Sequence record: NZ_CP081674.1 | Length of the DNA stretch: 64,000 bases | DNA from: a plasmid | Direction: 5' to 3' (one strand) | Shown: positions 21,876-55,354 of the stretch, piece after piece | Layout of the letters: each line of letters begins with the position of its first letter | Numbering within the stretch: position 1 is the first letter of the stretch | Made by a program: the position numbers and the translations under genes | Notes under the pieces: model-generated | Seen by the model: the letters and a program-made list of their open reading frames with translations, nothing else | Databases searched by the model: none | What the model was told of the DNA's origin: nothing

Positions 21876-22604
21876 GTGACGGCGCTCTTTGAGGATTCCG
21901 AGCCGCGGGACCGCGCGGTGTCGCGTAAGGAGGCGACCCGCTTGCTGCGGCAGGTCACTACCGGGGTCGCAGCGCTGCTCCTTGCCGCTGTCGATGACTG
22001 GAATGCCCTGTCCGAGCGGCACGCTGCGCACCTGCGCACCGAGTTGCACGGGCTGCTCCGGGGTTCGCATGTCGCCGGTCTCACTGCGGCAAGCACTGCG
22101 GTGTGGCTGGGCACGCAGGGCATGCACCCGCCTGGTCATATCGTGTCGAAACCGCATCGGTGGCCGATGATCAGCAGCCACGGCAAGACCTACATGGCCA
22201 TCCACCACTACGAGATGGAACCGACCAATGCGCGACGCACCGCGTTCTGCAACCAGGACTCCGAAACCTTGCGGCTCATCGATGCCGAAACCTCGTCTCT
22301 GATAGGCAATCCCACGCATTGCGAATTGACGTGGGACTACGACCCTTACACCGATGCGCACATCCGCCGGATCTGGGTCAGCGCCCCCAGCGTCGACTGG
22401 GCCAGATTCGAAGTTCCCATGGCCAAAGCCCAAGCCCAGCTCGCGTCCTGGCGCAAGCGCAAGATGAAGTGGCTGCCAGGAGAGCTGCCCGCCGACATGC
22501 ACGCGGTGGCACCGTTGCCGGCCCGCGACGCACAGGAGCGCCTCCAGCCAGGCATCGAGATTCAGCCGCCGCAGCGCTCGAAGGACGCCGGGGACGCCCA
22601 GTGA
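21876..22604 (+). CDS. hypothetical protein upstream of the recombinase trio
   Basis: GTG start with gaaagg RBS. The stop overlaps the tnpA-like GTG (GTGA). Confidence 0.45.
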   Translation: MTALFEDSEPRDRAVSRKEATRLLRQVTTGVAALLLAAVDDWNALSERHAAHLRTELHGLLRGSHVAGLTAASTAVWLGTQGMHPPGHIVSKPHRWPMISSHGKTYMAIHHYEMEPTNARRTAFCNQDSETLRLIDAETSSLIGNPTHCELTWDYDPYTDAHIRRIWVSAPSVDWARFEVPMAKAQAQLASWRKRKMKWLPGELPADMHAVAPLPARDAQERLQPGIEIQPPQRSKDAGDAQ

Positions 22605-23713
22605 GGGCGGCGCCGGTGACCGTGCACGGGCAACCGTCGTGGACGGTGGTCGACGATCATGGGTTGCCGATCGCAGAGGTCGAGCAGTTCCTGCACTGGT
22701 TGCGGGCGGTGGGACGCTCACAGAACACCGTCCGGTCCTATGCACGGCATCTGAGCTTGTTCTACCGGTGGCTCTCGGCACGCGGAATCGCTTGGGATGC
22801 CGTCGTCTTCGACGGGTTGTGCGACTTTGTCGGGGCGCTGTCAGTGGGATTGCCGCCGCTGCAAACCTGGCGTAACGGCCGATCACCAGCAACGGTGAAA
22901 GCAGTCAGCGCGGGCATCCGAGAGTTCTACGAGTTCCACCGGGTCGAAGGCCGGGGACCGCTCGACTTGGTGCTGACCCGCAACCCGTCGAGGCTGCCGC
23001 GCCGATCGCACAGCTTCCTCGCACACGTCGAGCGGCGCCGCCCCAGCGAGGTGTCACGCTTGACGAGACCGGGCAAGGCTGCAGCGGAGACGGTGCAGGT
23101 GATCGACTTCGAGACCGACTTCACGCGGCTACTGGAGTCAGCGTCCACTGACCGGGACAGGCTGCTGCTCTCTGCCCTGTATGACCTGGGGCTGCGGGTG
23201 GGGCAAGCGTTGGGGCTGCGCCACGGTGACCTGGACCCGATGCGCCGACGAGTGCGGGTCTGCCGCCGGGAAGACAACCAGAACGGGGCCTTGTCCAAGC
23301 AGCGGGCGCAGTTCACCGTGGAGGCACCGCGGCGCTTTTTCGACCTGTACGCCGCATACCTGCTCGGCGAACTCGCCGATGTGGACAGCGATTACGTGTT
23401 CGTGAACCTGTCCCGGCGCCCGCGGGGTGGTCCGTTGTCGTACTCGAACGCCTACCAGCTGGTGGAGCGCATCGGCACCTCCGCCGGCGTCGACGACCTG
23501 CATCCCCACATGCTGCGTCACACCCACGCCACGGCGCTGGCGCGGGCCGGATGGACGGCCGCCGAGATCGCCGCCCGACTCGGCCAATCGCACGCCGCCA
23601 GCGCCGACGTGTACATCCACCTTGCCGGCGATGATCTGGCCGAGCGGCTGCGCCGTACCGAGCATCTGGTGTGGCGGGCACCGCAGAACAGGGCTGGCAA
23701 TGACACGCGGTGA
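22601..23713 (+). CDS. tyrosine recombinase (Tn554 TnpA-like)
   Basis: C-terminal HPHMLRHTHATALARAGWTAAEIAARLGQSHAASADVYIHL (R..H..R.H...Y box). Confidence 0.75.
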   Translation: MRAAPVTVHGQPSWTVVDDHGLPIAEVEQFLHWLRAVGRSQNTVRSYARHLSLFYRWLSARGIAWDAVVFDGLCDFVGALSVGLPPLQTWRNGRSPATVKAVSAGIREFYEFHRVEGRGPLDLVLTRNPSRLPRRSHSFLAHVERRRPSEVSRLTRPGKAAAETVQVIDFETDFTRLLESASTDRDRLLLSALYDLGLRVGQALGLRHGDLDPMRRRVRVCRREDNQNGALSKQRAQFTVEAPRRFFDLYAAYLLGELADVDSDYVFVNLSRRPRGGPLSYSNAYQLVERIGTSAGVDDLHPHMLRHTHATALARAGWTAAEIAARLGQSHAASADVYIHLAGDDLAERLRRTEHLVWRAPQNRAGNDTR

Positions 23714-25706
23714 GTCCCGGACCGAATCCCGCGGCGTGCGCTCCCATCCGACACTGCGGGTCCCCGACGGCCCATGGTGCCAGCCGACCTGGCAGGTGGT
23801 CGAGGTGGCAGGGGATCGCCGCAGGCAGGCCGTCGACCCATGCGCGGTCGACGGCTGCGACGGCCCCCAATACTGGCTGGGCGGCCCCCGCAGCAACTCC
23901 GCCGCCACGTCAGGACTGTGCTACGCGCACTACTTCCAATGGTTCCGCGCCGGCCAGCCGGCCGACTTCACGGCCTGGGCCCAGACCGGGTCGACACCGG
24001 TAGGGCCGCCACGCGGCCGCACTTGCACCCAAGTAGTCGACTTCCGTCGGTTCCCGCCGACGGCTGCCGACGAGGTCCGGTTCGTCGTGGCCACCAAGGT
24101 CGGGAGAGGCGACTGGACGCCCAACGCCAGCCTCCGCCGCGTCCTCATGGTGCTCGTCGATGCGGCCGACGGCCGGGTCACGGATTCGCTGACCGAACGG
24201 CCCGTGCACGATTGGCTTCTGCTCTGCCGACAGCACTGGCCGCATGCCAGCTCGTTCGACACGCTGTGCGCACCGTACATCCGGAGCTTCTTCCGCCTGC
24301 TCGACGGCGCCACCAACCCCGACGCGTGGACCAGCGATCATTGGCACTGGCGCGATCAATTCGAGTTCGTCCTCGACGCCACCCAATCGGGATCCACGCA
24401 CACCGCCGTCGACTGGTCATCGGTACCGGTGCCCTGGCTTAAGGTAGCCGTCAAAAAGCTTGCACGACAACAGCTCACCACCGCCACCCTGTCCTGGGGA
24501 ACCCTCACCCAATGGGTGCGCGCCACCCGCCAGCTGGCCCGATTCCTCACCACCGACGGCACGGTTCCCGATCCACCCTCGGTGACCCGTTCGCTGTTCC
24601 TTGACTACCTGGCCTGGACCCGCCGTAGCGACACCGACGCGGACGCCCGGTTGGCCAACACCGGCGCATACCTGCTGGAGTCGTTGCACGAGACCGGGCT
24701 CGTCTGCGACCTGGGCTCGGCGATGTTTCTGCGCCGCGGCGAGAACGTCCACCGCAAGACTCGCAACCCTCGCCCGTTCCCGCCGGACGTCGTCGAGCGC
24801 ATCGACACCCTGATCGTCGACAACCCCGAAACCGACCCGACACTGCGGGCGATGATTGCCACGACGCGATGGGCGGGCTGCCGAATCTCCGAACTGGTCG
24901 CCCTCCCGCTCGACTGCCTGCACCACTGCGACGGGGGCTACTGGATCGAGTACTGGATGACCAAAACCAACGCATGGCGCCGGTTTCCCATCCCAGACAC
25001 CTTGGCCACCGTCATCTTGGCGCAGCAGACCCGCGTTCGAGACACCTACGGCCCCGAGGCCACGCACCTGTTCCCCGGGGCGCGATCGAGCGCCGCCGTC
25101 GGACGCACACAGCCCTGGTCCACCAGCGGTCTGCGGCACCGTCTCTCAGTCCTTTTTCGCGAACATGGAATCATCTCGTCGGCGATCACCGGTGAGCCGA
25201 TCTCCGGAGGGGACGTCCACCGATTCCGGCACACCGTCGGGATGACCCTGCTCAACAACGGATGGACCCAACAGGAAGTGCGCGACTTCCTCGGGCATCA
25301 GAGCGACACCATGACCTCGACGTACGCTCGGATAACCGACGACACGCTGGCCCGCAAGGCACGCGAATTCTGGGACAACAAGCCCGAGAACCGGTCTGGG
25401 GGCGACGCGGGTGTTGAGCGGCTCCGCGCACGATTCGCCGCGGCCCTGCCCAACGGGTTCTGCACGCTGCCGTCGGCGCAACGCTGCGAGTTTCGGCCCA
25501 ACCCCTGCCTGGACTGCTCCTTCCACGACCCGGGCGGCCGGGTCTTCCTCGGCGCTCATATCGTTCACCGAGACCAACTGCAGCGCCTCACCGACGATGC
25601 TCGTGAACGCGGTGACACCGAAGCGGTCGAGCTGAACACGACCATGCTCGCCAAAGTCACCAAGCTGATCGCCGAACTCGACCCCGACAGCCCGGAACGC
25701 CCGTGA
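23700..25706 (+). CDS. large tyrosine recombinase (Tn554 TnpB-like, 668 aa)
   Basis: C-terminal HRFRHTVGMTLLNNGWTQQEVRDFLGHQSDTMTSTYARI. Overlaps tnpA-like by 14 nt. Confidence 0.75.
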   Translation: MTRGESRTESRGVRSHPTLRVPDGPWCQPTWQVVEVAGDRRRQAVDPCAVDGCDGPQYWLGGPRSNSAATSGLCYAHYFQWFRAGQPADFTAWAQTGSTPVGPPRGRTCTQVVDFRRFPPTAADEVRFVVATKVGRGDWTPNASLRRVLMVLVDAADGRVTDSLTERPVHDWLLLCRQHWPHASSFDTLCAPYIRSFFRLLDGATNPDAWTSDHWHWRDQFEFVLDATQSGSTHTAVDWSSVPVPWLKVAVKKLARQQLTTATLSWGTLTQWVRATRQLARFLTTDGTVPDPPSVTRSLFLDYLAWTRRSDTDADARLANTGAYLLESLHETGLVCDLGSAMFLRRGENVHRKTRNPRPFPPDVVERIDTLIVDNPETDPTLRAMIATTRWAGCRISELVALPLDCLHHCDGGYWIEYWMTKTNAWRRFPIPDTLATVILAQQTRVRDTYGPEATHLFPGARSSAAVGRTQPWSTSGLRHRLSVLFREHGIISSAITGEPISGGDVHRFRHTVGMTLLNNGWTQQEVRDFLGHQSDTMTSTYARITDDTLARKAREFWDNKPENRSGGDAGVERLRARFAAALPNGFCTLPSAQRCEFRPNPCLDCSFHDPGGRVFLGAHIVHRDQLQRLTDDARERGDTEAVELNTTMLAKVTKLIAELDPDSPERP

Positions 25707-26134
25707 CCACCGACGACCGCCAACAGCGGACTGCCCGCCTTACCGAAGCCGCCGCGGCCCGCACGGCTGACGCGACCGCCCGCGCCCGCCGGGCCATCAC
25801 CAAACTGCACGCCGCCGGGCAGCCGATCACATTCGTTTCCATCGCACGCACCGCGGGAGTATCGACCAGCTTCCTGTATCAGCACACCGACCTTCGGCGC
25901 GATATCAGCGAGCACCGTCGCCGAGCGACCGGCGACCTGCACACACCGAACCCTGCTGCGGCCACAGTCGAGTCGCTGCGCACCAAACTCCAAGTAGCCC
26001 TGCACCGCAACCGCGACCTCGCCGAAGAAGTTGCGGTGCTGCGTACCGAGAACGAGGCCCTCCGCAGCCGTGTCCTCGACCTCAACCACCGTCATACCTC
26101 CGCTCCCCGAGCGCGGCCCGCTACCGATGGCTGA
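25703..26134 (+). CDS. small HTH/coiled-coil protein (Tn554 TnpC-like)
   Basis: ATGA overlap with tnpB-like. 143 aa. ITFVSIARTAGVSTSFLYQH HTH-like segment plus a leucine-rich coiled coil. Confidence 0.55.
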   Translation: MTTDDRQQRTARLTEAAAARTADATARARRAITKLHAAGQPITFVSIARTAGVSTSFLYQHTDLRRDISEHRRRATGDLHTPNPAAATVESLRTKLQVALHRNRDLAEEVAVLRTENEALRSRVLDLNHRHTSAPRARPATDG

Positions 26135-39501: not shown

Positions 39502-40004
39502 CTATCGCCCTAGTGCACAACCCGTACGCATCATCGACCTCAAAGACAATCTGACAGATATCGCAACTGAGCTACTGTTCACCTGGTTGCGCGAGGCAAT
39601 CCAACCGTGAGCGGCTGCTGACGGTACTAAGACGGACGAGTTGGTCCCGCGGGGGGAGTGCGGACCTTGACCGGTGATGCTGCGCTCGACCATGCCGCCA
39701 AGGCATTCGCGGGTATGCTCGTCGATGATCGACACGATCTCGATCGGCCGCCCATCGGTGGTCACATCGAACTGGAAGTCCACTGCCCACACCCGGTCGG
39801 GCGCATCAGCGACCACCGCCGGCGGCGCAGTGGTGGTACCGTGTCGTTTACGCTTGCGGCACTGCGGAACCCGCAGCCCCCAGCACGCGCTGGAGGTGAC
39901 GAACGGCTGCCCGCCGACGTTCCGCAGCCATCAGCTTGAGCACAATCTGCTCGGGACTGTGCCACTTCCTCGTCGCCATGATCTTGTCGAACCTTCCTGC
40001 CCAC
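39502..40004 (-). mobile_element. IS3-family transposase remnant (OrfA start plus a partial integrase core)
   Basis: MATRKWHSPEQIVLKL (OrfA-like N-terminus) and WAVDFQFDVTTDGRPIEIVSIIDEHTRECLGGMVERSIT (DDE core fragment). Interrupted by stops and frame changes. Confidence 0.5.
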
Positions 40005-43385: not shown

Positions 43386-43512
43386 GAACGGGACTTTGAA
43401 TTACATTGTGCACCAACACATTTCGCCGATAAGCTACGATATGTCAGGTTGTCTTGATGGCGCTCTGGTCAACATCAGGAATTCCTGATGTTTTGGGTGT
43501 AGTCTGTTTCAT

Positions 43513-46764: not shown

Positions 46765-47103
46765 CTACGGACGTCCTGTACCTGTGGCAGGCATGCTCGG
46801 CGCCAACAGTTCGCCGGGAGCGACTCCGAGCACCTGGGCGATATGAACCACTACGACGGCAGTGGGGTTCTTGCGTCCACCTTCAATGTGGTTCAGATGT
46901 GGCCTGCCAATACCAGCGCGCTCCGCGAGCTCGGCTTGTGTCAGACCCGCCTGCAGACGGTGGTCCCGGATGGCAGCACCGAGGGCGGCCAGGATGACGG
47001 AATCATCGCTGGACGTGTCCGTCACGGCCGCTCCTCTCCATAGGCGTTGCCCAAAGGCTACACCGGGAGTGATCGTGTCGGGGCGTTCAGAACAGGACAG
47101 CAT
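46765..47103 (-). CDS. XRE-family HTH regulator
   Basis: AGLTQAELAERAGIGRPHLNHIEGGRKNPT HTH. Lies immediately downstream of the PAPS-reductase-like gene. Start uncertain. Confidence 0.5.
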   Translation of the reverse strand: MLSCSERPDTITPGVAFGQRLWRGAAVTDTSSDDSVILAALGAAIRDHRLQAGLTQAELAERAGIGRPHLNHIEGGRKNPTAVVVVHIAQVLGVAPGELLAPSMPATGTGRP

Positions 47104-48286
47104 CAGTCGTGGCCTCCTGCCACCATTGTTCGAATCCGGCGCGCTGCTTGTCCTCGACAACAGCCGGGCACACCACGTAAAAGTGCTCCAGGTCCGGTTT
47201 TTCGGCGGTGCGCTGACGAACGATGTGACGCAGGATGCCATCTCCCCCTACACGAGGAACACCTGGCGCCAACGCCAGGGCGTCACTCATCTCTTGGCGC
47301 GTCCCCCGCTTCGTGGCCCGCACCGATCGTGCGACGGTTCCGCACCCGTCTGGCCGTTTCGACGATCGACGGGTCAGCCGCCGGACCTCGTAGATCGCGT
47401 GCTCGCAACCGTCGAGCGTCGCCTGGAACCGGCGCTCTACGTCCTCGAGGTTGGCTTGTGCGGCGAGCGCCGCGGCGGAGCTCCCCTGGATGAGGGTCTG
47501 GCGTTCGTTGAGCCTGCGGGCCACGTCCTCGAGGAACAGGGCGCGCGCGCCCTGGTGCGGTTCCCGCCGCCATCTCTCTACGACGTCCCGCCGGCCGGCC
47601 TCAGTGGTCATCGCAAACGGACAGAAGCCGCACGCTGATTTCGACCATCGGCGACCGGTGATCTGCGTGATGAAATCCGTGCACTGCGCCCGATCCCAAC
47701 CCCAGTCCTGCAACGGGTACCAGCCGGTGCGCTGGTCGGTATTGAACAGAGCATCCTTGACAGCCCTTGACGGCTCCCCGCTTTCGAAACCGACGACATG
47801 ACGATAACTCCGTCCGGCGGTGACCGTGGCGATGACAGGATCCAGGCAATTTCCTTTGGCGTGGATCGAGCACAGGCGCGTGCCACCGATCTGGGGAAGC
47901 GTTCCCGCCGAGAGCAGCTCATCCTCCAGTGTGTACGCGGCACCGTACAGACGCTTGGGAGCGGTGGAGTCCTGCAGCACCGCAACCCCTTCCCCGCTCG
48001 TGCTGGTCTTTCGTTGAGACCGGCCTACCTGGATGAAACGAACGCCGCGACGAGATAGCTCAGGAAGAACGACTTCCTCGACGTCGCGGATCGTCTCATC
48101 GAACTCTCCCCCAGTGTCTGCCGCGATGACGACGAGGTCTCGCAGATCGAAGTCACGGGTTGATGGTTCGGTGAACCACCGCAGCAGGATGGCGGTCGAG
48201 TCAACGCCCATCCCGTAACTCATCACAACCATTGGGCTGCAGTCGGACTCGCTCACGATGGGTAGTTGATCCTGGCTGGCAGTCAT
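47087..48286 (-). CDS. PAPS reductase-like / PP-loop ATP pyrophosphatase family protein (DndC/BrxP/IbrA-like)
   Basis: N-terminal PP-loop VVMSYGMGVDSTAIL. C-terminal Cys cluster SACGFCPF. Confidence 0.65.
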   Translation of the reverse strand: MTASQDQLPIVSESDCSPMVVMSYGMGVDSTAILLRWFTEPSTRDFDLRDLVVIAADTGGEFDETIRDVEEVVLPELSRRGVRFIQVGRSQRKTSTSGEGVAVLQDSTAPKRLYGAAYTLEDELLSAGTLPQIGGTRLCSIHAKGNCLDPVIATVTAGRSYRHVVGFESGEPSRAVKDALFNTDQRTGWYPLQDWGWDRAQCTDFITQITGRRWSKSACGFCPFAMTTEAGRRDVVERWRREPHQGARALFLEDVARRLNERQTLIQGSSAAALAAQANLEDVERRFQATLDGCEHAIYEVRRLTRRSSKRPDGCGTVARSVRATKRGTRQEMSDALALAPGVPRVGGDGILRHIVRQRTAEKPDLEHFYVVCPAVVEDKQRAGFEQWWQEATTDAVLF

Positions 48287-48314
48287 CAGACTCCTCCTGA
48301 CACTTCCTCGAAAG

Positions 48315-48358
48315 GTGTTGCCTATAGGCTACATCAGGGTGTAGCCTATAGGCAACAC
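48315..48358. promoter_or_regulatory. perfect 19-bp inverted repeat with a 6-bp spacer (GTGTTGCCTATAGGCTACA-TCAGGG-TGTAGCCTATAGGCAACAC) in the divergent promoter region
   Basis: Lies between the PAPS-reductase-like gene (minus) and the C5-MTase gene (plus). Each arm contains the self-complementary CCTATAGG. Confidence 0.7.
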
Positions 48359-48381
48359 GTTCGGTTGAGGAGGTAGACCAG

Positions 48382-50115
48382 ATGCTCGAAATAATGGATT
48401 GGTTCTGCGGGGCCGGAGGCTCGTCACAGGGTATGCACGCCGTACCGCACGTCCGGGTCACCAAGGCGGCCAATCACTGGGACAAGGCGATCGAGTCGCA
48501 CGCTGCCAACTTCCCCGACACCGACCACTACCTCGGCGACATCCGCGAGGCCCCCGTGGCGAAATGGCCCGTCGCAGACATCTTCTGGGCATCACCCGAA
48601 TGCCCACAATGGTCAACGGCACGAGGTAAAAAGCGCGACTTCGACGCGACGCTGCAGGGCGACCTGTTCGACACCCCACGCGACGAAGAGGCCGATCGCT
48701 CCCGCGCCCTCATGGAAGAAGTCCCGATGTACCTGCGCGGCGTCATCGAACGCGGTGGCCGAGTCCGGGCCGGGGTGGTCGAGAACGTCGTCGAGGTACG
48801 CGCATGGGACCAATGGGACCGCTGGATCGGCGAGATCCGCAGCCTCGGCTACCGAACCCGCGTCATCGCTATGAATTCCATGCACGCTCAACCAGGCCGC
48901 ACGCTGCCAGCCCCACAGTCACGCGACCGCCTCTACGTGGCCTACTGGGACAAAGCCCTGCGCCGCGAACCCGACTGGGACAAATGGCTCCGACCCCGCG
49001 CGTACTGCACGACATGCGACGAATGGATCGACGCGATCCAGGTGTTCAAGAAGCCCGGCGCCGACATGGGCCGCTACCGCAGCCAGTACGTCTACAGGTG
49101 CCCCCACGTGGCATGCCGCAACGCCATCGTCGAACCACCAGCCATGCCCGCCGCCGATGCAATCGACTGGACACTGCCCGGTGAGCGCCTCGGCGACAAG
49201 CCGCTACGGGAATTCAGGAACAAGGACACGGGCAAGGTGGTCGTCGCCCCGCTCGCCCCTAAGACGATGGCTCGGATCACGGCCGGAATCGAACGCTACT
49301 GGGCCCCGTTTATCACCGAGCACCGGCACGAGTATCGAGTCCGTGGTGTCGATGTACCGCTGCAAACCGTGGCGGCCGCGGGCAACCACTTCGGCTTGGC
49401 CGTGCCGATCGAAGGCCGCGACGGCAAGGTCGCCGCCCCGGTCGAGCTGCCTCTGAGGACCGCCACCACCCGCAACGAAACCGCCCTCGTGGTGCCGTGC
49501 GGCGGAACCTGGCGCGATGCAGCCACTACCGCCAACGTGCCGATATCGACCCGCACCACACGCGAATCCGACGGCATCGCCTTCCCCCCGTTCGTCGCCG
49601 AATTGCGCGGCGGCGCAAGCGACGTCCGCTCTGTCAACGACCCTCTCGCGACCGTCACAGCCTCGGGCAACCACCACGGACTCATCACCAGCTACTACGG
49701 CAACGGAAGCACCCACAGCACGGACGAAGCCCTCGCTACGGTCACCGCGATCCACCGGCACGCATTGCTGATGCGCAACAACGGAGTTCGCGGAGGACAC
49801 CCGGCCCGCCACACCACGCCCATCGATGAGCCAGCACGCACCGTCACTACCTCCGGGCACCAGTCACTACTAACCGCCCACGCACTGCCCATCGACCTCA
49901 GCGACGTGCTCTTCCGCATGCTGGAACCGCACGAGATCGGCCGCGCAATGGCCTTCGGACGCAACTACGTCGTCCTCGGAAACAAGCGCCAGCGAGTCCG
50001 CCAGTACGGCAACGCCGTCACTCCCCCGGTCGCCGGAGTCATCGTGTCAGCACTCGTCGAGGCAATCACCGGCGAAACGATCGAGCGATGGCCACACGAC
50101 CTGGCTGCGGCCTAG
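48382..50115 (+). CDS. DNA (cytosine-5)-methyltransferase
   Basis: Motif I DWFCGAGG, motif IV SPECPQWS (PC), motif VI ENV, and the C-terminal QYGNAVTPPVA. RBS gaggagg. A large variable region. Confidence 0.85.
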   Translation: MLEIMDWFCGAGGSSQGMHAVPHVRVTKAANHWDKAIESHAANFPDTDHYLGDIREAPVAKWPVADIFWASPECPQWSTARGKKRDFDATLQGDLFDTPRDEEADRSRALMEEVPMYLRGVIERGGRVRAGVVENVVEVRAWDQWDRWIGEIRSLGYRTRVIAMNSMHAQPGRTLPAPQSRDRLYVAYWDKALRREPDWDKWLRPRAYCTTCDEWIDAIQVFKKPGADMGRYRSQYVYRCPHVACRNAIVEPPAMPAADAIDWTLPGERLGDKPLREFRNKDTGKVVVAPLAPKTMARITAGIERYWAPFITEHRHEYRVRGVDVPLQTVAAAGNHFGLAVPIEGRDGKVAAPVELPLRTATTRNETALVVPCGGTWRDAATTANVPISTRTTRESDGIAFPPFVAELRGGASDVRSVNDPLATVTASGNHHGLITSYYGNGSTHSTDEALATVTAIHRHALLMRNNGVRGGHPARHTTPIDEPARTVTTSGHQSLLTAHALPIDLSDVLFRMLEPHEIGRAMAFGRNYVVLGNKRQRVRQYGNAVTPPVAGVIVSALVEAITGETIERWPHDLAAA

Positions 50116-50191
50116 TTCGACCCGGGGTGCAGAACGCCACGAAATAACCGTTGCGTTCTGCACCCACCAACTCAGGAGCAAGAAGGTTGCG

Positions 50192-50671
50192 ATGTCCGAA
50201 CAACTCATGATCGACTTCGATCCGCGAGCCACCGCCGCGCGCATCGCCGCCGAAGAAGAAGTGGCCGCAGCATACGCAGAACTGGTCGTCGAACTCGTCG
50301 TCACCGAAGCCGATGCCCGCGAGCACGACCTCTGGCTCACCCCTAGCGACGGCGGGCGCCTCACCGTCTTGGTGTGCCCTGCCTGCGGTCAGTACGAAGC
50401 CAACGAATTCCTAATCTGCAACAACCACGGTCTCAGCCGGGAGTATCTGTACAAGCGGGGCGACGGAGCATGGGTGACGACGGGCCGCGAGTACGGCAGA
50501 CAATGGTGTGTCGCCCTCGACCTCACCAGCCGACACCTGGCCGGCGACTGCCACCTCAGCGAAAGCCAGACGCAAATGCTGGGCCGACTCCGACCCGAGG
50601 TCCGCGAAAGATTCGATCGTGAGGTCGCGGATGTGCGCCAGCGCATCGAGGCTCGACAGATTGGTCGGTAG
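50192..50671 (+). CDS. hypothetical Cys-containing protein downstream of the C5-MTase
   Basis: CPACGQYEANEFLICNNHG. Not Vsr-like. Confidence 0.45.
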   Translation: MSEQLMIDFDPRATAARIAAEEEVAAAYAELVVELVVTEADAREHDLWLTPSDGGRLTVLVCPACGQYEANEFLICNNHGLSREYLYKRGDGAWVTTGREYGRQWCVALDLTSRHLAGDCHLSESQTQMLGRLRPEVRERFDREVADVRQRIEARQIGR

Positions 50672-50679
50672 CGCTGACG

Positions 50680-51113
50680 ATGAGCCTGATCGCTGCTATA
50701 CGGAACAGTCTTGCACTTGCTATGCCAAGCAAAGTTTTGCAATACGGAATTCGACATACTCACTGATTGCTGTGTGAACCCGTTCAGTGTTGTGAAACCG
50801 CCAAATGAACGCATGATGTATCCAATGAGGAAGTATGGTCAGGCGGGCAACGAGCAAAGATGGTGACGGCCGGGACTGTAGTGAATCACGCCTACGTAGG
50901 GCGAAATATACGCAATAGCATTGACCAGAAGAACGTCCACGACTTTGTGTGAAAGACCCGGCGCGGCGTCTCTGCCAGAATCCTAGTGACTAATAGAAGA
51001 ATGGCGAAAAGTCCACTAATAATATTAGCTACAACCATTGCAGTAATGGCGATAATCCCTTATTGTGGAAGCATAAGAAAATAGCCTATCTGATTCAGAA
51101 TGAGGAGTTGGAA
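50680..51113. promoter_or_regulatory. ~430-bp strongly AT-rich non-coding region (candidate oriT/origin/promoter region)
   Basis: The GC content falls far below all flanks, with runs such as ctaataatattagctacaaccattgcagtaatgg. Confidence 0.4.
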
Positions 51114-51380
51114 ATGTCCGTCACCGTGTACACCAAGCCCGCATGCGTGCAGTGCAACGCCACCTATAAGGCGCTGGAAAAGCAGGGCATCGCGTTCGAG
51201 AAGGTTGACATCACTGTCGACAGCGAGGCCCGCGACTACGTCATGGCGCTCGGCTACCTGCAGGCCCCGGTAGTGGTGGCCGGCAACGAGCACTGGTCGG
51301 GCTTCCGGCCCGATCGGATCAAGACACTCACGAATCCGGAGACGGTATCCACCGCCGATGCAAGTGCGGTGTCCGCATGA
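51114..51380 (+). CDS. nrdH: NrdH-redoxin (glutaredoxin-like)
   Basis: CVQC active site and a WSGFRPD C-terminal motif. RBS ggag. Confidence 0.75.
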   Translation: MSVTVYTKPACVQCNATYKALEKQGIAFEKVDITVDSEARDYVMALGYLQAPVVVAGNEHWSGFRPDRIKTLTNPETVSTADASAVSA

Positions 51381-54264: not shown

Positions 54265-55293
54265 ATGACGGCCACGCTGCACAAACTCACCGCCGGTGAT
54301 GGCTACCTGTATCTGATCCGCCAGGTCGCTGCGCACGACACCACCGAGCGCGGACGCAACACCCTCTCCGATTACTACTCGGCCAAAGGTGAATCCCCCG
54401 GCCGCTGGGTTGGCAAGGGGTTGGCATCACTGTCGTATACCGGGGTACGTGGCGTATCCCAACAGGTCAAAGACGAGGTCTGGACGGTACCCGAAGGGTC
54501 CGAGGTCACCGAGGAACAGATGGCAGCACTGTTCGGGGAAGGGTTGCACCCCAACGCCGTTGACATCGCCAACCATCAGGTAGGTCGAGGCGCACCTGCC
54601 CACGTCGCGATCAAGGCGGCTCATCTGGGCCGGCCATTCACCGTGCGCAGCGGGGCGACCGAGTTTCAAAAGGCACTCGCGGTCGCCTACCGCGAGTACA
54701 ACGCCGAGCACGGCAAGCGATGGAACGCACCCATCCCTGACGAGGTCCGTGCCCGACTGCGCACCACCATCGCGCGTGAACAATTCAGCGAGGAATACGA
54801 CCGCGAGCCCGCCGATGACCGCGAGCTTTCCGGCTTCATCGCGCGCAACTCACGGCTACCTACCACCGCCGTCGCCGGCTACGACATCACGTTCTCACCG
54901 GTGAAATCGGTGTCGACGCTGTGGGCCATCGCCCCCCTGGATGTGTCGGCCGCGATCGAAGAGTGCCACGACGCCGCGGTGACAGATTCGTTGGCGTTCA
55001 TCCAACAAAACGCCGCGTTCACCCGCATCGGTGCCGGCGGTGTCGCCCAAGTGGATACGACAGGCCTCATCGGAACAGCCTTCACACACCGCGATTCGCG
55101 CGCGGGTGACCCGGATCTGCACACGCACGTGGCGATTTCGAACAAGGTCGCCTACATCGACGCACACGGCGTGCAGCGTTGGCTGGCGCTGGACGGACAA
55201 CCCCTGCACCGCATGATGGTGAGCGCTTCTGAGCTCTACAACACCCGACTCGAGGCGCATTTGGAGGAGCGCCTCGGGCTGCGATTTCGCTGA
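54265..55293 (+). CDS. traA: MobF/TrwC-type relaxase, N-terminal relaxase domain (first part of a frameshifted traA)
   Basis: YYSAKGESPGRWVG (catalytic Tyr region) and HRDSRAGDPDLHTHVAISN (3-His motif). Confidence 0.8.
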   Translation: MTATLHKLTAGDGYLYLIRQVAAHDTTERGRNTLSDYYSAKGESPGRWVGKGLASLSYTGVRGVSQQVKDEVWTVPEGSEVTEEQMAALFGEGLHPNAVDIANHQVGRGAPAHVAIKAAHLGRPFTVRSGATEFQKALAVAYREYNAEHGKRWNAPIPDEVRARLRTTIAREQFSEEYDREPADDRELSGFIARNSRLPTTAVAGYDITFSPVKSVSTLWAIAPLDVSAAIEECHDAAVTDSLAFIQQNAAFTRIGAGGVAQVDTTGLIGTAFTHRDSRAGDPDLHTHVAISNKVAYIDAHGVQRWLALDGQPLHRMMVSASELYNTRLEAHLEERLGLRFR

Positions 55294-55354
55294 GGTCACA
55301 CCCCCCGGCCGCAACAAGCGACCGATCCGCGAGATTGTCGGCGTCAGCACCGAA

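Follow-up and report, generated by a model that had tools for sequence, protein, structure and literature searches.

A perfect inverted repeat lies at positions 48315-48358 of a 64,000-nucleotide stretch (the window) of the plasmid sequence NZ_CP081674.1, between divergent genes for a 399-amino-acid (aa) PP-loop protein and for a C5 DNA methyltransferase. We consider it likely that the repeat contains two operators, O1 and O2, for an 86-aa, C-protein-like regulator of the XRE family, and that these operators are laid over two superimposed mirror-image promoters that XRE shuts off. The regulator would be the product of a gene situated two genes to the left of O1 and O2 (Table 1). This reading rests on the structure of the repeat, on the conservation of its sites and of their spacing in related loci, on the exclusive association of such pairs with genes of one XRE family, and on the resemblance of the sites to C-boxes.

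Structure of the inverted repeat

As the preliminary description of this DNA had stated, the repeat is a perfect 19-6-19 palindrome of 44 bp: the arms GTGTTGCCTATAGGCTACA (48315-48333) and TGTAGCCTATAGGCAACAC (48340-48358) are perfectly complementary and enclose the hexanucleotide TCAGGG (48334-48339). A repeat finder extended the arms to 22 nt at 95%, and ranked the repeat best among the hairpin-type inverted repeats of the window. By our own calculation, which assumed a per-base match probability of ~0.267 at a GC content of 63%, a perfect 19-bp repeat with a loop of no more than 10 nt would be expected by chance ~1e-5 times per window. The self-complementary octamer CCTATAGG reported earlier was found in both arms (48321-48328 and 48345-48352). 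The repeat is located within the 95-bp gap that separates the start codon of the methyltransferase gene (48382, plus strand) from that of the 399-aa gene (48286, minus strand); its centre, 48336.5, is 2.5 bp off the midpoint of the gap.

Both arms are in turn near-palindromes of 18 bp, TGTWGCCTATAGGCWACA, with the general form TGTWGnCTATAGnCWACA. Therefore, the repeat is not one long site but two tandem dyad sites, O1 and O2, separated by 24 bp centre to centre. The preliminary description had proposed a single 44-bp operator for the dimeric XRE protein. Its regulatory role and XRE as the best candidate for its ligand seem to hold, whereas the single operator has to be replaced by two 18-bp dyads, presumably occupied by two dimers, and by a third predicted site, O3.

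Sites of this kind are rare. The window contains three copies of the 18-mer, all inside the module. Among 2.9 million viral contigs none matched the pattern of the pair, and a search of 241 million metagenome records gave only seven matches. Six of these are beside a homolog of the 399-aa protein or a C5 methyltransferase, and the seventh is on a contig of 1.5 kb. With these numbers, a dispersed repeat resembling a repetitive extragenic palindrome or a miniature inverted-repeat transposable element could be rejected.

Conservation of the pair of sites in related loci

A profile of the 399-aa protein, built from a seven-sequence alignment, was run against one genome of each species and yielded 73 related loci, denoted here by L numbers. 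Genes were called with a relaxed version of a caller based on the GC content of third codon positions; these calls are approximate and leave several start codons in doubt. Pairs of the O1/O2 type are present in about 25 related loci, which come from mycobacterial MOBF plasmids, from other Mycobacteriales genomes and from metagenomes. In three mycobacterial MOBF plasmids the XRE and 399-aa genes are similar to those of the window at 70-73% DNA identity, and the similarity ends at the outer edge of the palindrome, beyond which the divergent gene encodes a ParB-N-domain protein, not a methyltransferase. The alignment with these plasmids showed that the 44-bp element is kept while its flanks diverge, and that O3 is kept too. 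In M. arabiense, the two arms have changed in a matched way (GGCTACA to GTTTACA and TGTAGCC to TGTAAAC).

The position and geometry of the pair are equally constant. In 21 plasmid and genome loci, down to ~50% protein identity, the pair is located 30-36 bp upstream of the 399-aa gene and the distance between the centres of its sites is always 23-24 bp, even though these loci contain 18 different spacer sequences and unrelated flanks. Among 19 distinct 18-mers, the CTATAG core and G2, G5, T15 and A16 are essentially invariant, whereas positions 6 and 13 differ between loci but usually agree between both arms.

The gene on the other side of the pair is not constant. Divergently from the 399-aa gene we found genes for a ParB_N protein (L001-L003), a C5 methyltransferase, a canonical PF01507 PAPS (3'-phosphoadenosine 5'-phosphosulfate) reductase (L014, L029) or a conserved 'QRWLL..GGW' protein (L008, L010, L013, L015, L037), as well as a Fic-containing operon (L016, L018). 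As the divergent gene of the relatives can be that of a ParB-N protein, a PAPS reductase or another protein, the palindrome is independent of this gene and belongs to the XRE side of the locus, not to the methyltransferase. A control of the sites through methylation by the adjacent methyltransferase was rejected, since the sites are also present in loci in which ParB-N replaces the methyltransferase. In M. houstonense, whose 399-aa protein is 88% identical to that of the window, the homology (L005 4877-4930 versus window 48359-48409) stops ~28 nt into the methyltransferase gene; thus the methyltransferase has been lost, with ~9 codons left, and the perfect palindrome has been kept together with the Shine-Dalgarno sequence and start codon of the lost gene.

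In M. sphagni (L013 4866-4935) the repeat extends to perfect arms of 32 nt, which cover both Shine-Dalgarno regions (TCCGCTCCCTAACC...GGTTAGGGAGCGGA). This suggests that the entire divergent control region has been kept symmetric there or has been duplicated in inverted form.

Association of the sites with the XRE regulator

The protein proposed to bind the sites is a small single-domain Cro/C1-type helix-turn-helix (HTH) regulator (HTH_31, 6.3e-16; HTH_3, 1.5e-13). The preliminary description had assigned its gene to 46765..47103. An HTH gene is present there, but its start is most likely GTG 47025, as judged from the Shine-Dalgarno sequence GGAGAGGAG preceding this codon, rather than ATG 47103; the homologs annotated as 85 aa in RefSeq (Prokaryotic Genome Annotation Pipeline) agree with the shorter, 86-aa form. 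With this start, O3 would directly precede the regulator gene; it lies in the 61 nt that separate GTG 47025 from the stop codon (47087) of the 399-aa gene. O3 is the sole further copy of the 18-mer in the 64 kb when up to three mismatches are allowed (it has three; chance expectation 0.01), and it is kept at the equivalent position, upstream of the XRE gene, in ~20 loci.

XRE homologs in the related loci were sought by tblastn and with a profile made from twelve regulators. Every pair-bearing locus with enough sequence encodes a member of the XRE family. The apparent exceptions (L011, L012, L016, L018) have their XRE gene elsewhere in the locus, with a site of its own directly upstream in the case of L011 and L012. 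Among 85 loci, 24 had both the pair and XRE, 51 had neither, 5 had XRE only and 5 the pair only (Fisher p = 1e-11, ignoring phylogeny). The five XRE-only loci have the 5' part of the 399-aa gene disrupted and have kept single sites, and the contigs of the five pair-only loci are short and stop before reaching the position of XRE. Moreover, variants of the operator track the recognition helix of XRE: GRPHLNHIE occurs with GCC, SRPYLN with AAC, DRAFLARVE with GGT..ACC and [HD]RTY/F with GAC. The complete co-occurrence in loci with enough sequence, the conserved O3 upstream of the XRE gene, and the operator variants changing with the recognition helix make the neighbouring XRE protein by far the best candidate for the binder of the sites.

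Additional sites precede other genes of the module. In plasmid-type loci only, a single site, O4 (e.g., TGTTGCTTATAAGCAACA), is located ~20 nt upstream of an operon for proteins of 181 and 99 aa that is convergent with the XRE gene. In L001 it occupies positions ~2977-2994 in the orientation of the record (6560 when the locus is turned so that the 399-aa gene is on the plus strand). L002, L003, L006, L007, L031, L040, L041 and L043 have equivalents; no counterpart of O4 was found in the window. Second pairs are present directly upstream of methyltransferase genes 1-3 kb away in L008, L009, L013, L015, L017, L029 and L037, and L008 has an additional pair upstream of a small gene. Several of these further pairs are not mirror images of each other. 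Such single sites and non-mirror pairs at other module genes indicate that the functional unit would be the 18-mer with its 23-24 bp spacing, and not a long hairpin.

Predicted promoter hexamers within the proposed operators

The half-sites of the pairs are not equivalent. The outer ones always contain TGTTG and the inner ones TGTAG, and either strand reads TTGnnT-N17/18-TAGnCT. The hexamer TANNNT was found at positions 3-8 of the proximal site in 50/50 strand-reads (25 distinct pairs), and TTG was present 17-18 bp upstream of it in 46/50; in the window the spacing is 18 bp. The preferred -10 hexamer of M. smegmatis SigA is TANNNT, with no base preference in NNN (PMC6448022). In pairs that have a gene on one side only, TGTAG is confined to the half-site facing the gene in 6/8 cases. 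All O3 sites have TA[G/A]nCT oriented toward the XRE gene, and the O3 of the window overlaps a -10-like hexamer directly upstream of this gene. Finally, the repeat leaves 23-28 nt on each side, which hold only Shine-Dalgarno sequences, and therefore the promoters must lie inside the repeat. An alternative in which the -10 hexamer is at positions 10-15 of the distal site (TAGGCT) and transcription starts in the spacer was rejected, as it fits the O3 sites, the one-sided pairs and the upstream TTG less well.

Most likely, then, the palindrome represents two mirror-image promoters lying on top of each other, with the half-sites of the operators serving as their -35 and -10 hexamers, and this double use would explain the fixed spacing of 23-24 bp. 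For each promoter, the outer half-site of the far operator would supply the -35-like TTGCCT and the inner half-site of the near operator the -10 hexamer TAGCCT. Transcription is predicted to start near 48354 (rightward) and 48319 (leftward), giving leaders of ~30 nt with a Shine-Dalgarno sequence. With an XRE dimer on each of O1 and O2, the -35 and -10 hexamers of both promoters would be covered, and thus the unit encoding the PP-loop enzyme and XRE and the divergent methyltransferase unit would be shut off together; we infer repression rather than activation. O3 may provide direct autoregulation of XRE or act as a roadblock to read-through, as in Kpn2I. As XRE would be made from the unit that it represses, the entry of the conjugative element into a cell devoid of XRE is predicted to cause a burst of expression followed by shut-down.

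Several observations weigh against this reading. In its matches the XRE protein of the window does not seem to favour C-proteins over other XRE proteins, as ClgR and proteins of the 434-repressor type score as well or better. Two of the one-sided pairs (L037, L015) are symmetric despite their genes running one way, most O4 sites are without TANNNT, and the variable base of the inner half-site agrees among O1, O2 and O3 within a locus. A consensus sigma-70 scanner, the thresholds of which are too strict for mycobacterial promoters, found no promoter between 46600 and 48600, because the predicted hexamers match the E. coli consensus at only 7/12 positions. The matched variation of the arms at their 'free' positions might partly reflect hairpin-templated correction and not selection. 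In addition, the pattern used to find the sites partly presupposes the motif, and the loci are phylogenetically related, so that the counts overstate their independence.

Comparison with known systems and alternative explanations

The preliminary description had compared the locus with the C-protein-controlled operators of restriction-modification systems. The C-boxes are TATA-centred sites with GAC/GTC trinucleotides and outer TG/CA, arranged as GACT-N3-AGTC-N4-GACT-N3-AGTC with 15 bp from centre to centre (PMC3488213). The sites described here share the layout TGT-W-GnC-TATA-GnC-W-ACA, and those of relatives carry GAC-TATA-GTC, which is a match at the level of the pattern only. The OR oligonucleotide of Esp1396I, TGTGTGATTATAGTCAACA (PMC3758141), is close to O2, TGTAGCCTATAGGCAACA, and to the TGTAGACTATAGACAACA of relatives. 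The C-proteins C.Esp1396I, C.AhdI, C.BclI, C.PvuII and C.Kpn2I are also small single-domain HTH_3 regulators, and their sites are also paired. As here, Esp1396I has separate sites (OM, OL and OR) at the regulator's own gene and at the methyltransferase gene, and Kpn2I is alike in its overlapping divergent promoters and possible roadblock site (PMC6237814). The XRE protein of the window matched C.AhdI (1.6e-5), C.BclI (2.2e-4) and C.Esp1396I (4.6e-3) in the PDB, and in PADLOC it weakly matched Control_protein (2.6e-7), with HTH_VI and CapH scoring better. The likeness is closer in the L013 regulator, whose best natural matches in the PDB are C.BclI, C.Esp1396I, C.Csp231I and C.AhdI; its recognition helix, DRTYVSQVE, shares the pattern DRTY[IV]S.[IV]E with that of C.Esp1396I, DRTYISGIE.

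There are also clear differences. The sites are 23-24 bp apart instead of 15 bp, two identical mirror sites coincide with the predicted -35 and -10 hexamers of two opposed promoters, and the regulator gene is downstream of the gene of a PP-loop enzyme, not upstream of a restriction gene. No restriction enzyme was detected among the open reading frames (ORFs) tested between 44960 and 50671, the partners vary (methyltransferase, ParB_N, PAPS reductase), and the hosts are conjugative elements of Mycobacteriales. Thus, the comparison holds for the layout of the sites and for the relatives' regulators, but does not extend to a restriction enzyme.

In spacing, the locus resembles lambdoid immunity regions. 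The OR regions of λ and phage 434 contain tandem dyad operators of 14-17 bp, 6-7 bp apart (23-24 bp centre to centre), which lie over two divergent promoters and are bound by HTH dimers of the Cro/C1 type. Tandem dyads and a 23-24 bp spacing are found here too, divergent promoters are predicted, and the 434 repressor is among the PDB matches of XRE; however, there are two sites and not three, one regulator and not two antagonists, a perfect mirror symmetry, and no context of prophage immunity. Plasmid repressors such as ArdK, StbA and KorA of R388 and KorA and KorB of RK2 have repeated operators before several backbone or establishment operons. The burst predicted on entering a naive cell would be alike, by analogy only, since the families of these proteins and the sequences of their operators are unrelated to those described here.

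These likenesses leave room for an activator/repressor of the C-protein style, in which a dimer over the -35 hexamer would recruit RNA polymerase at low XRE; at high XRE both sites would be filled and transcription would be repressed, with a resulting delay like that of PvuII, AhdI and Esp1396I. The kinship of regulators and sites to C-proteins and C-boxes speaks for it, as do the overlap of each operator with one predicted -35 hexamer and the poor match of the hexamers to the consensus, which would allow for activation. We nevertheless regard activation as unlikely. The two sites of the window are identical and have no built-in difference in affinity like that of OL and OR; their spacing differs from that of C-boxes; and each site would be the -35 hexamer of one promoter and the -10 hexamer of the other, so that a single dimer would also block the opposite promoter. 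Moreover, no restriction enzyme that would need a delay was found.

Could the palindrome instead act as a nucleic-acid hairpin? It might be a stem-loop in the 5' leader of an RNA, controlling its stability or translation, or a bidirectional terminator, or it might form in the single DNA strand that conjugation transfers. The predicted fold of the 95-nt intergenic RNA is very stable (-51.5 kcal/mol, z = -7.15), changes in one arm are matched in the other while the loop is free, and the element carries a MobF relaxase. What is conserved, however, is the identity of the bases (CTATAG, G2, G5, T15, A16) and not merely their pairing. The dyad symmetry of each arm would be useless for a hairpin, and other genes have single 18-mers (O3, O4) and non-mirror pairs. 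There is no run of T residues, and divergent genes need no terminator between them; no Rfam match was found at E <= 1; and with promoters inside the repeat each transcript would hold only a part of the stem. Together these points make a hairpin function very unlikely.

A protein other than XRE, whether the 399-aa protein or, in an arrangement like that of parS or KorB, the ParB-N-domain protein of related plasmids, appears to us a still more doubtful binder. The plasmid-type loci do have a ParB_N protein as the divergent gene, and the composite TGTTGCC..GGCAACA has what we take to be a superficial look of parS. The palindrome is nevertheless present without a ParB homolog in the window and in eight other loci (L008, L009, L013, L015, L017, L029, L037, L079), and absent from six ParB-containing loci without XRE (L020, L021, L023, L025, L039, L044). 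As for the 399-aa protein, L079 has the palindrome, between a methyltransferase gene and the XRE gene, and no 399-aa gene, and dozens of loci have the 399-aa gene without the palindrome.

Least probable is that the repeat is a non-functional or structural by-product, whether it arose as a quasi-palindrome that template switching made perfect, marks a recombination junction or resembles the repeats of a transfer origin (oriT). Close inverted repeats are prone to templated correction, and gene content switches exactly at the outer edge of the palindrome, but position and spacing are held down to ~50% protein identity while the flanks randomise, the sites recur before several module genes, and the repeat is ~6.5 kb from the relaxase gene.

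Genes under the predicted control

The features of the locus are listed in Table 1. As repression by XRE of two overlapping promoters, the switch most likely belongs to a kind that is already known, of which it is a tidy case, and there is nothing unusual in an XRE regulator having a palindromic operator; the cargo that the switch would control is the less understood part.

Table 1. Positions of the genes, predicted operators and predicted promoter elements in the window.
Feature	Position	Strand	Remarks
XRE/Cro-C1-type HTH regulator, 86 aa, GTG start	46765..47025	-	Proposed binder; Shine-Dalgarno, HTH_31, HTH_3
Predicted operator O3, TGTAGCCTTTGGGCAACG (minus strand)	47045..47062	-	Single site, weaker; 19 nt before the start codon of XRE
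399-aa PP-loop ('PAPS-reductase-like') gene	47087..48286	-	First of the leftward unit; phrog_424 3.7e-11
Shine-Dalgarno GGAGGAG, 399-aa gene	48291..48297	-	Read from sequence
Inverted repeat (O1 + spacer + O2)	48315..48358	.	Perfect; kept in ~25 related loci whose flanks diverge
Predicted operator O1, TGTTGCCTATAGGCTACA	48316..48333	.	18-bp near-palindrome, centred between TA and TA
Predicted -35-like TTGCCT, rightward (methyltransferase) promoter	48318..48323	+	Outer half of O1
Predicted -10 TAGCCT, leftward promoter	48326..48331	-	Inner half of O1
Spacer TCAGGG	48334..48339	.	Length held at 5-6 nt, sequence free
Predicted operator O2, TGTAGCCTATAGGCAACA	48340..48357	.	18-bp near-palindrome
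Predicted -10 TAGCCT (TANNNT), rightward promoter	48342..48347	+	Inner half of O2
Predicted -35-like TTGCCT, leftward (399-aa gene) promoter	48350..48355	-	Outer half of O2
Shine-Dalgarno GAGGAGG, methyltransferase gene	48367..48373	+	Read from sequence
C5 DNA methyltransferase, 577 aa	48382..50115	+	Rightward unit; PF00145 3.8e-18; phrog_116 2.9e-53

The sole profile match of the 399-aa protein was phrog_424, 'PAPS reductase'; it had no match in Pfam, NCBIfam or PADLOC. Its AlphaFold (AF2) model is confident (pLDDT, the predicted local distance difference test, 88.6) and consists of an N-terminal PP-loop domain and a C-terminal beta-rich domain (~296-399). A Foldseek comparison of this model with the PDB gave only weak matches, all to PP-loop ATP-pyrophosphatases (argininosuccinate synthase, nitrile synthetase ArtA, NcsA, LarE, TilS), and no clear relative of the C-terminal domain. 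Thus, the earlier label 'PAPS-reductase-like' is justified at the level of the PP-loop superfamily and no closer. Cys139, Cys219 and Cys222 are invariant. Homologs of the protein are encoded by Mycobacteriales, Kineococcus, Chloroflexi and many filamentous cyanobacteria; the protein of the window is identical to one of Mycolicibacterium farcinogenes. A literature search on PAPS reductase, ParB and plasmid found no description of this module.

It had also been suggested that the operator serves to delay the expression of a toxic component after transfer. In Pfam, PHROGs, NCBIfam and PADLOC, the ORFs tested had no match to a nuclease family, so that of an endonuclease-methyltransferase pair only the C5 methyltransferase was found, and no demonstrably toxic component was found among them, which leaves the suggested delay unproven. 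The module is on a conjugative or mobilizable element, as follows from a MobF relaxase (54800-57300), nrdH (51100-51380), an IS3 fragment (39670-39880), two tyrosine recombinases with a DUF6262 gene (22600-25900) and tRNA-Ala(TGC) (28403-28474); in addition, the GC content of the window falls to ~0.59-0.62 between ~28 and 52 kb.

The 86-aa repressor and the 44-bp element constitute a clean and tractable predicted regulator-operator pair for mycobacteria, which could serve as a compact bidirectional expression switch. The predicted switch would also extend control of the C-protein type beyond restriction-modification, to a module with a PP-loop enzyme that is carried by MOBF conjugative plasmids and integrative and conjugative elements. 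The genes marked by the operators, i.e., those of the 399-aa enzyme, XRE, the methyltransferase or ParB-N protein and a few small proteins, provide a list of candidates for functions in plasmid establishment. We can imagine, as a speculative and rather improbable extension, that the switch is the timing device of an establishment or anti-restriction module, in which the PP-loop enzyme, with its Cys139/219/222, and interchangeable DNA-directed partners (C5 methyltransferase, ParB-N protein or canonical PAPS reductase) would modify the incoming DNA during a burst after transfer, before being shut down by XRE. If so, this would be a new DNA-modification system under control of the C-protein type without a restriction partner.

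Directly downstream of the methyltransferase gene there is an ORF of 159 aa (50192-50671, plus strand) with a CPACG...C motif, for which Pfam, PHROGs, NCBIfam and PADLOC gave no match; there is no basis for calling it a restriction or Vsr-type partner. It is preceded by a 17-nt inverted repeat (50125-50165; 94%, 7-nt loop; GGGTGCAGAACGCCACG / CGTTGCGTTCTGCACCC), which begins 10 nt past the stop codon of the methyltransferase gene and may be a terminator or attenuator hairpin. Elsewhere in the window we noted a 27-nt inverted repeat (36931-36989; 85%) with a 5-nt loop and CACCGGTG cores, and a perfect 22-bp palindrome, AACATCAGGAATTCCTGATGTT, at 43471-43492.

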